From IMG/VR virus record IMGVR_UViG_3300015174_000009: a stretch of DNA of 14,490 bases; one strand, written 5' to 3'. The first letter of the stretch is position 1, and each line of letters begins with the position of its first letter. The stretch is from a virus. Lineage: Duplodnaviria > Heunggongvirae > Uroviricota > Caudoviricetes. The position numbers were made by a program. This document shows positions 3,001 to 6,000 of the stretch, one piece after another.

Positions 3001-6000
3001 GACCGTTTCCGGCATGGCGGCATATTCATCACGCAATACCCCCAGCTGGCTGATTAACGCAGGAACGACTTTATCCGCCGTCAGTTTGCCGTCGTCCGCC
3101 ATCGCCTTAAGGTCTTTACGGGCCACGCCCATACCCGCAGCCAGTGCACGTACGATCCGGTCTCCGCTTTCATTGACCGAATTAAATTCCTCACCGCGTA
3201 ACACACCCTGTGCCAGCGCCTGGCTGAACTGGGTGATCACCGAGCCCGCCTCTGCCGTACTGGCACCGGAGATTTTCAGCCCCGTGGAAATGGCCTCCGT
3301 CACCTTCAGCACATCATCAGCACTGTAACCATATTCACGCATTGAGGCTGCCGAGCGGGCAAACAGGGCCGCATTATCTGAAAATGCCGTGCCCGTCCGC
3401 TGGCTGATATCCATCAGCACTTTCTGTGATGACGAAAATTCATCGGATGACTGCGACGCCTGTTTCAGTCGGGCATTCACGGAACTCCATTCATCGGCCA
3501 GAGAAATCAGGTGTCCGGTGGCAAAGGCACCTGCAAATGCCCCCGCCGTTCCGGCAGCTGAAGCGCGGATTTCCGTCAACTGGCTGTTCAGCTCAGCCAG
3601 GGCGCGTCGCTGCTCCCGGGCGACTGCGGCAGCCTGACGCCCGCCATTCTGCAGGGTCCGGTAATATTCACTGCCCATGCGGGAAGCCCGCTGGATCTCC
3701 GACTGGAATGACTGCGAATTTGCCGAAATTTTGATAATCAGTTCACGTAACGTCGCCATTCACCTTTCTCCGGGCGTAAAAAAACCGCCTCAGCGGTTCT
3801 CATCATTCATGACTGTGCTGCAAAGCTCAGCGCGTCTTCCAGCGCCGCAAACGGATCCACCTCCGGCTTATCCTCATCCTCGCCCCAGCAGAGCATGGCG
3901 TCCTTCAGTGCAACATTCATCCCCTGTGCCCCAAAAACCGCTTTCACGATCTGTGCATTACGGATATCCCCGCGCTCATCACCCAGCGGGGATACCCTGT
4001 CGAACTCCATCCACATCATCGCCTCGCTCACACTCAGGCTGTGCCGCAGTTCGGATAAGGTGCGCCCCAGACGGAGCGCAAGTCGCATCAGAAAGCGAAT
4101 TTCCGGGCGGGCTACTTTTTTCTGGCCGACTCTGCATCAGCGATCAGTTCCAGTGCCTGACGCAGCAACCGGGCATGTACCGGACCATAGACGGCCAGCA
4201 CCTGCTCACGGTCGTCCGGAGCGAACACCCGCTGCAGATCCGTATCACACAGGACATCGCAGAACAGCGTCACATCCGCTTCCAGGTTACGGCGGGTTTT
4301 CGCCACCACCGACAGGGTATCGTCATCCTCTCCATCACCATTGAGCACTTCCTGCCACAGATACCAGGCCTCTGCCGAAGGCTCCCGCAGCACCACGCTG
4401 ACATTACCCCATTCCGGCACCTTCACCGTTTTATGACGAAACCCTGACAGTCTGGCCAGCGCCAGCGTTTTCAGATCCTTTTTCATGATGACCCATCCCC
4501 TTATCCGGCGGCTGCGCTCACTGTCACGGTGCATTCAACAGACGTCACACTCTGTGCTTTCTCTGCCGAATCGGTCACCACGCAGGTATATTTCCCCGCA
4601 TCAGCGGACTGCGCACCTGGCTTACTGAAGGTGTCTGTCGTCTGCCCGTCAACCGGCTGACCATCCTTCTTCCAGGCGTATTTATACGGCGGCGTTCCCC
4701 CGTTGGCACTGACTGACATTGTCAGCAGCGCACCTGTATTCACGGTAAGTGTTTTATCCAGATTTTTCACAAACGCCAGCGGTACCACAAAGGACACCGG
4801 TTTGCCTTTCATACGCAGTGAAAACGTTGCTGCCACCACGCCGTTGGTACCGGATGACCAGGTGTGCTGACGCACTTCCGCCAGGAACTTAAAGCCCTTA
4901 CCGGACGGAAACAGCACCTTAAACGCATACAACGCGTCATTGTCATAGGCATCACGCAGGGCGTTCTGGGCCTGATTCAGATAAAAATTACCCGACATGG
5001 AAATCTCAGACGACGCCCCCAGACCGTTGATGTTCTCCTGCTCGGTGGAGCAGAGCGTGGTCACATCAATATCCTGTTTCTGACCGGCGGTGAACTGGAC
5101 TTCCTTGATGGTGCAATCCAGGCGCAGATATTCCGCCTTATCCATAGTTTCAGCAGTCGCCGGGGCAGATGAAATCATCACCTGCGTCAGCTGTGAGCGT
5201 TCATACAAAGCAGACATTCTGCCTCCTGATAATAAAAAACCCGCACGCGGCGGGGTATGGTTTTGTAGAAAAAAGAAAAAGTCACACCGTGACCTGAAAC
5301 TCCAGGGTTGCACGGTAACAGCGGTTTTCCGGAATATAGTCCTGCATTTCACTGACGGATCCCGGGGCCAGCAGCATTATGGCTTCACGGGCGTCCTGAC
5401 GTATCTGACGCGCCTGCGTCACAGTCCCGGCATAAACGTCTATCTGCACCGACACTGAGGACTCCGCCTGCCCGCCCATCACGTCCGCTGACACCGATGA
5501 AATCAGGCTGAAAACCACCCACGGAAGCGCCACCGACGGCCTGCCATCCAGCAGGGGGACCACATACGGGTACACCTGCCCGCCGGCAAGATGCGCCAGA
5601 TGAGGATACAAATCCGCCTCCGTCATCGTCTCAGTACCTCATCAATGGCCCGGTTCATCCGCGCAATCGCCACCTGAGCTGCCTGTTCACTGCGCACATC
5701 AAACGCCGGGCGCACAAACGGGTGCGGTGGCATATTCACGGTCCCCATTTCCACAAACCGCCAGTAGAAAGCATTGCGCGGGTTATCCGCCTTCATAGTG
5801 TTATCGCTGTTACCGGTGTCCGGATTAACACCCCGGATATGGACACCGGATTCCATCCCGCCATCGCGGGAGCGCCGGGAAAGGATCACCACATTGCGGC
5901 GCAGTTTTCCCCTGCGTACCGGTGCCCGTGACACCACTTCTTCTTTCAGCACATTCGCACCCGCACGGGTTGCCTCACGCAGCACCCGGTTATTTTCCGC

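Follow-up and report, generated by a model that had tools for sequence, protein, structure and literature searches.

The tail assembly chaperone genes G and T, and the slippery sequence at which a fraction of ribosomes would pass from the reading frame of the first into that of the second, lie on the minus strand of the IMG/VR virus record IMGVR_UViG_3300015174_000009. This is a DNA of 14,490 nucleotides (nt) from a virus of the Caudoviricetes, and the whole stretch was analysed (the window). The features of the locus are collected in Table 1. On the minus strand the 3′ end of G runs AGA (4123-4121), AAA (4120-4118), AAG (4117-4115) and TAG (4114-4112). This bears out the initial annotation, according to which G ends AGA AAA AAG TAG with its stop codon placed directly against the heptamer A AAA AAG (4121..4115). 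On this strand the open part of the −1 frame begins only at 4136 and runs to 3807, overlapping the frame of G by eight codons; because the −1 frame is closed by the TGA at 4139-4137, the shift must fall within these eight codons.

Table 1. Features of the G–T locus and of the flanking genes, in coordinates of the window
Feature	Coordinates	Strand	Remarks
G, tail assembly chaperone, zero-frame product, 124 amino acids	4112..4486	-	ATG 4486, TAG 4114-4112; Pfam PF06222
Slippery heptamer A AAA AAG, X_XXY_YYZ phase	4115..4121	-	inside experimentally tested insert
Zero-frame TAG abutting the heptamer	4112..4114	-	context UAG-C; 3′ edge of the shift window
−1 frame TGA	4137..4139	-	5′ edge of the eight-codon shift window
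T segment, V-A-R-P-E-I-R-F-L-M... to TGA 3809-3807	3807..4115	-	post-slip −1 frame; Pfam PF06223
Segment matching the published reporter insert exactly	4067..4141	-	Phage_TAC cluster 862991913, fs-gene 15618692; 75/75 match
Hairpin GCGCUCC-GUCU-GGGGCGC in the T coding sequence	4062..4079	-	judged incidental
ATG used as T start by public annotation	4086..4088	-	
Major tail protein, C-terminal Ig-like domain	4501..5217	-	upstream neighbour of G
Tape measure protein, 1,080 amino acids	517..3759	-	downstream neighbour of T; Pfam HK97 TLTM, TMP_3, Tape_meas_lam_C

Translation in the −1 frame from 4121 begins KKVARPEIRFLMRLALRL... and ends at the TGA at 3809-3807; the same reading, as translated, is KKVARPEIRFLMRLALRLGRTL.... 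This agrees with the earlier proposal that slippage leads into the T open reading frame, and an open reading frame 3807..4088 is indeed present in the list for the window. The G-T fusion is described by complement(join(3807..4115,4115..4486)), which is 681 nt in length and encodes 226 amino acids; its conceptual translation contains the junction peptide ...SARKKVARPEIR..., also written …AESARKKVARPEIR…. The join that had been suggested, 4486..4116 with 4118..3807, has to be abandoned, as its parts sum to 683 nt and this length is not divisible by three. With a base rate of 1.57 expected copies of AAAAAAG in 28,980 strand positions, chance alone would supply about 4e-4 in-phase heptamers within the eight-codon space. 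Considered over the window as a whole, AAAAAAG occurs six times where 1.57 are expected, a number reached in 0 of 200 shuffles. The three other copies on the minus strand (9761-9767, 12952-12958 and 12997-13003) sit within the protease-capsid and small terminase genes, in the AAA_AAA_G phase and not in the −1 slippery phase.

The two frames encode members of known tail protein families. G gives a full-length match to Pfam Phage_TAC_1 (PF06222; E=1.7e-61), and is labelled ‘phage tail assembly chaperone’ in a RefSeq record that is 100% identical. The −1 peptide matches Phage_tail_T (PF06223), the lambda-T-type domain, with E=1.6e-18. With their frames overlapping, G and T lie between the gene for the major tail protein and that for the tape measure in an HK97-type morphogenesis module.

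The G-T site is already known, its exact sequence having been both catalogued and measured, and there is nothing new in the site itself. An insert identical to 4141..4067, ending ...GTC TGG, gave a frameshift of 7% +/-0.79 in a GST-MBP reporter in E. coli (Antonov et al. 2013, PMC3711429, Suppl. Table S2). The initial annotation had called for such a reporter assay, and the published result on the identical 75 nt provides it. Two members of the HK97-like ‘phage tail assembly chaperone’ cluster were tested in that study, at 6% and 7%, the 6% insert being of the G GGA AAG CCG TAA type (PMC3711429). In the catalogue of Sharma et al. 2014 the site falls in cluster A_AAA_AAG_25, comprising 53 genes with ECs1801 as representative; this is described as ‘tail assembly chaperone; [true]’ and cross-referenced to GeneTack programmed-frameshift cluster #10 (PMC4066793). 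ECs_1801/1802 of the Sakai prophage Sp9 are 98% identical to the sequence studied here over G-T, and the junction is identical. Production of the shift product at a low and fixed level is thus documented by the published reporter in E. coli.

How general is this arrangement among related chaperone genes? Junctions were taken from nine annotated phage homologues, from 35 loci of distinct bacterial species and from several hundred IMG/VR contigs. The bacterial loci were found by searching genome contigs with a six-sequence alignment. The first IMG/VR scan returned only loci that were 91-100% identical, and four further scans were made with diverged queries. When the conceptual G-T fusion is used in a tblastn search the phage homologues match as two pieces, one in each frame. 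The T frame is −1 in every related locus examined (~400). An in-frame A_AAG lies within the G/T overlap in 122 of the 123 loci of the first set, and among the ~400 it is missing from just two, both visibly damaged. The arrangement is kept down to ~26-35% protein identity, and no gaps are needed to align the fusion proteins through the junction. An overlap of just 10-16 nt is seen in several relatives, in which the shift could occur nowhere else.

The form taken by the slip site varies within these limits. The dnaX-type heptamer A AAA AAG is the commonest, with an abutting stop in 97 loci and a following sense codon in 50. The window is of the first type, as are PhiR49_2 and the relatives from Vibrio, Proteus, Rahnella and Buttiauxella; in those from Xenorhabdus, Serratia, Burkholderia and Moraxella G runs on for 1-11 codons beyond the heptamer. 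The HK542 type has G GGA AAG CCG TAA, and a sense codon follows the heptamer in all 54 G GGA AAG loci. G GAA AAG is found mainly in the HK97 type, with the stop directly after it in a few loci. In Klebsiella, Pantoea, Erwinia and Phytobacter the site is N GCA AAG or N GTA AAG (with one A GAA AAG), in each case with the stop directly after. The initial annotation was correct in its identification of a dnaX-type heptamer in place of the G GGA AAG of lambda, but this is not unusual in the family.

Some other features of these loci may be recorded here. The codon preceding AAA AAG (4121-4123) is the rare arginine codon AGA, and a gene for tRNA-Arg(UCU), argO3, is present in the related Sakai prophage Sp9 itself. 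The AGA codon was considered as a conserved feature and dropped, the relatives having GAA, GGA, GCA, GTT or TTA at this position; a role for it in frameshifting is unlikely since the preceding codon is not conserved. In the IMG/VR contig UViG_3300029191_000019 the T frame diverges about 30 residues after the slip, and enters a long open reading frame (…HSHPGG…, …GDILLC…). This looks like a lambda K-type tail protein, suggesting that a deletion has joined T to a tail gene further downstream. In four other related loci (L080, L098, L100 and L203) the T frame is also truncated or broken, probably through prophage decay.

Another account of the locus would be that translation of T starts at ATG 4088 as a gene in its own right, with no need of a frameshift. 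A T protein of 93 amino acids from this ATG has been annotated by PGAP and by submitters, the methionine is present in most relatives, and the entire Pfam T domain lies downstream of it. In the Klebsiella-type relatives an ATG is found 4 nt past the stop of G, and reinitiation is conceivable in those. Yet the Shine–Dalgarno (SD) sequence of ATG 4088 is poor. Located 12 nt upstream of the ATG, it pairs with the anti-SD at just −3.5 kcal/mol, more weakly than at any other annotated gene start in the window (−5.8 to −12.8 kcal/mol); the start of G has −8.4 kcal/mol. Moreover the −1 frame is conserved upstream of the annotated methionine, as V-x-x-P-x-x-F-F-L, and the methionine itself is not universal, being replaced by F or L in relatives from Rahnella, Xenorhabdus and Moraxella. 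Annotators do not agree on where T begins: PGAP and phage 2851 use ATG 4088, while ECs_1802 of Sakai begins 95 nt past the end of ECs_1801. Finally, a frameshift of 7% has been measured on the identical sequence (PMC3711429). Translation of T as a separate gene is therefore very improbable. The view taken at the outset, that T has no well-supported start of its own, is upheld by these observations, and ATG 4088 is most likely an internal methionine codon of G-T.

We conclude that G-T is very probably made from G by −1 ribosomal slippage on A AAA AAG. This is supported by the assignment of the families, the gene order, the −1 arrangement with its A_AAG in ~400 loci and the published 7%. The conserved peptide upstream of the T methionine and the weak SD sequence of ATG 4088 point the same way, and the locus can be read, as originally proposed, as the conserved tail-chaperone frameshift. 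A number of points weigh on the other side. The published assay used a short insert placed between GST and MBP and, as summarised, did not separate ribosomal from transcriptional slippage. Every public record of the element that was inspected (RefSeq/PGAP and GenBank phages) has G and T as separate coding sequences, with T as an independent gene and no ribosomal-slippage join. Lastly, the synonymous-site profile (pairwise, 33 representatives, 142 codons) has its sole strong dip at the slip site, with an observed/expected ratio of 0.47-0.50 in a five-codon window, but part of the invariance of AAG in this profile follows from the definition of the fusion point, which was set at A_AAG. Support that is independent of this comes from the existence of an A_AAG site within the tiny overlap of essentially every locus.

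Might the extra reading frame be reached at the level of the transcript? RNA polymerase could in principle add an extra A within the run of six, generating G-T by transcriptional slippage. The site is a homopolymeric run of A, which is A7 in the Vibrio and Proteus relatives and A8 in PhiR49_2, and the reporter assay as summarised fits either route. Against this, six A nucleotides are fewer than the length of eight or more that is documented for programmed transcriptional realignment (PMC3711429). Members of the family that shift at G GGA AAG, G GAA AAG or N GCA AAG have just three or four A nucleotides, which cannot support slippage by the polymerase. Furthermore, the conserved element is A_AAG in fixed phase, which is a ribosomal signature. 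We regard transcriptional slippage as extremely unlikely, and slippage on the ribosome remains the preferred explanation.

Stimulatory structures act at 5-9 nt past a slip site, and in signals of the dnaX and IS911 type an SD-like element lies ~6-17 nt upstream. The initial annotation had pointed to a hairpin as a possible stimulator here, placing it 25-45 nt downstream. The hairpin is present, at 4079..4062, but it lies 36-53 nt past the heptamer, and the resulting spacer of 35 nt is far beyond the working range. It is a stable, G+C-rich structure of 7-8 bp that does form, and all seven of its pairs are intact in 13 of the 33 representatives, with some others one pair short. Its stem comprises the codons of the conserved A-L-R-L-G-R motif. 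Several lines of evidence speak against a function in frameshifting. The 92-nt fold after the heptamer is no better than those of shuffled sequences (z=−0.70), and among the 33 representatives there is no synonymous constraint on the six hairpin codons (observed/expected ~1.0). No compensatory changes in the stem were found among the representatives. RNAalifold gave no consensus structure for 31 representatives over 72-156 nt past the site. The hairpin has been lost in members from Burkholderia, Xenorhabdus, Serratia, Buttiauxella and Moraxella that retain the slip site. The published insert that gave 7% ends at 4067, just two bases into the 3′ arm of the hairpin, so that five of the seven bases of that arm are missing and the hairpin is not needed for the shift.

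A larger downstream structure fares no better. Sharma et al. predicted a fold of 130 nt starting ~5 nt past the heptamer, and a predicted downstream hairpin was scored as present in 85% of their cluster (PMC4066793). We rejected the larger fold: the z-scores of local folds of 30-130 nt, relative to mononucleotide shuffles, ranged from −1.98 to +0.22 and showed no trend, and the 31 representatives yielded no consensus structure. The delta-delta-G of the cluster, 0.020 +/- 0.023, is at background (PMC4066793). On the upstream side, none of the SD-like tetramers (GGAG, GAGG, AGGA or similar) is found in the 20 nt preceding the heptamer, and the SD is scored ‘N’ for cluster A_AAA_AAG_25 in Table S4 of Sharma et al. 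(PMC4066793). We consider it highly improbable that the frameshift requires stimulation, in the manner of dnaX or IS911, by the hairpin at 4079..4062 or by a larger fold, and the earlier suggestion of a stimulatory hairpin is accordingly set aside.

Slippage on the heptamer would then operate as follows. Most ribosomes would terminate at the TAG at 4114-4112, releasing the G protein of 124 amino acids. A minority (~7% in the reporter) would slip back by one base on A AAA AAG at 4121..4115, where the tRNA-Lys of E. coli (anticodon mnm5s2UUU), which pairs poorly with AAG, would re-pair on AAA. The slipped ribosomes would read GUA GCC CGC... in the −1 frame to 3807, giving the G-T protein of 226 amino acids at a yield of about one G-T for every 13-14 G. 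The signal would be essentially the heptamer alone, with neither an upstream SD sequence nor a functional downstream structure, and the ratio of G to G-T would be fixed by the efficiency of the slip. By analogy with lambda, many G and few G-T molecules may coat the tape measure protein, with the T domain recruiting the major tail protein. G-T would in this way bridge the tape measure and major tail proteins during assembly of the tail. The weak pairing of tRNA-Lys with AAG, the shifty character of A_AAA_AAG and the G:GT model of lambda come from earlier work (PMC4066793, PMC5009743). In lambda, assembly of the tail depends on having both G and G-T in the proper proportion, and neither is present in virions (PMC5009743). 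We infer the role in tail assembly, as we do the division between two-tRNA and P-site slippage, and either route of slippage yields the same protein.

The stop codon that abuts the heptamer is a possible contributor to the signal. It may add to slippage because the A site would remain unoccupied with tRNA-Lys still on AAG. In such a ‘shifty stop’, UAG-C awaiting release factor 1 would give the tRNA additional time in which to slip. We put this forward tentatively, and think it rather less probable than that the stop plays no such part; were it true, the ratio of G to G-T would depend upon the activity of the release factor. In 105 loci, of the Klebsiella, Pantoea and Erwinia types, the P-site codon is one that does not re-pair (GCA or GTA before AAG), and in all 105 the stop follows directly after AAG. 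This fits slippage on the tetramer A_AAG helped by a ‘shifty stop’, and the layout with an adjacent stop may have let the heptamer decay to the bare A_AAG tetramer in this family. We treat this as a lead only, because the 105 loci come from few clades and because the Klebsiella type has an ATG 4 nt past the stop. The comparative set provides a natural series of slip-site variants within a single family, and could be used to probe the contribution of an adjacent stop to −1 slippage.

The remainder of the morphogenesis module comprises genes for an HNH endonuclease, the small terminase, the large terminase, a protease-capsid fusion and then the portal, followed by genes for the connector and head-completion proteins, for one resembling gp10 and for a protein that completes the tail. 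The minor tail protein M lies beyond the tape measure gene. The gene order is unusual in that the large terminase is followed by a fusion of prohead protease (S78) and major capsid protein of 645 amino acids, at 9222-11159 (-), and only then by the portal. The portal protein, at 6749-9010 (-), has 753 amino acids, of which residues 54-382 form the Phage_portal domain; its C-terminal extension of ~370 amino acids has no Pfam match. In the Sakai annotation the counterparts of these two are called ‘prohead protease’ and ‘portal protein’. The open reading frame of the HNH endonuclease, at 13734-14099 (-), is directly upstream of the small terminase gene, as is typical of HK97-like cos packaging modules.

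Two hairpins resembling terminators are present in the window. One, at 3778-3798 (-) between T and the tape measure gene, has the form AACCGC-UGAG-GCGGUU followed by U5, with a stability of −10.8 kcal/mol; the second, also followed by a T run, is at 5234-5255 (-), just upstream of the major tail gene. A consensus terminator scan over 3600-4700 called nothing, the hairpin at 3778-3798 included; that at 5234-5255 is outside this range. Rho-independent terminators are annotated in HK446 and HK633 at two places, one shortly after the major tail gene and one shortly before the tape measure gene, and only the one on the tape measure side matches a hairpin of the window in its position.

The element that carries these genes is a long-tailed, Stx-phage-like prophage of E. 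coli. The DNA of the window is 100% identical to part of the E. coli chromosome NCCP15648, and is 97-99.8% identical to Stx1a- or Stx2c-converting and related phages, with 2851, YYZ-2008, BP-4795 and JLK-2012 among those listed. Homologous stretches are present in 1,246 of 5,426 complete E. coli genomes. For an element that is so widespread the main practical value of this work is a correction to the annotation, and it carries little weight as a discovery. The correct product is a joined coding sequence with ribosomal slippage, and curated joins of this kind exist for the homologues HK446 and Bcep176.

The G-T frameshift of long-tailed phages is textbook knowledge, and the present example can be placed among those already known. 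The closest is ECs1801/ECs1802 of Sakai Sp9 (A_AAA_AAG_25; GeneTack ‘Phage_TAC’ 862991913), which has the same slip site, stop and downstream sequence, and is separated from the window by only a few substitutions, most of which fall in the 5′ part of G or the 3′ part of T. In HK97 (gp13/gp14), HK446 and HK633 the Pfam families and the gene position are the same, and T is once again in the −1 frame. These HK97-like phages have ~60% protein identity to the window; they slip at CGG GAA AAG (that is, G GAA AAG), and G runs for five more codons to its stop. HK446 has a curated joined coding sequence, unlike the element in the window. The Burkholderia phages Bcep176 (gp69/gp69') and phiE125 (gp13/gp14) are more distant members of the family, at ~35-41% identity, and have the same A AAA AAG heptamer. 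However, G continues for 10-11 codons past the heptamer, so that the stop is not adjacent, and the hairpin is absent. Bcep176 is annotated as a joined coding sequence, ‘lambda T equivalent’.

Outside the chaperones, gamma and tau of E. coli dnaX are generated on the same A AAA AAG heptamer with the same slippery tRNA-Lys. There, however, the signal includes an SD-like element on the upstream side and a stem-loop close by, and a shift of ~50% leads to a shorter product. The window has no SD-like tetramer and no functional structure, shifts at ~7% and yields a longer product. Of the elements of a stimulated signal of the dnaX or IS911 type, it has the heptamer, and lacks both the upstream SD-like element and a structure 5-9 nt downstream.

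The architecture is that of lambda G/G-T, with the same presumed function, the same T-domain family (PF06223) and a −1 shift of low efficiency. The programmed −1 frameshift of the tail assembly chaperone G/G-T, of the lambda type, was reportedly described for long-tailed phages by Xu, Hendrix and Duda in 2004. There are differences of detail. The G of the window belongs to Phage_TAC_1, a family built around the HK97-type chaperones, and we take lambda G to belong to another Pfam family. The heptamer of lambda is G GGA AAG where that of the window is A AAA AAG. In lambda the ratio of G to GT is fixed at ~30:1 (PMC5009743). In its gene position, the −1 frame of T, the in-phase slip site, the conservation among homologues and the family homology of G and T, the site in the window has the features of the lambda G-T class.

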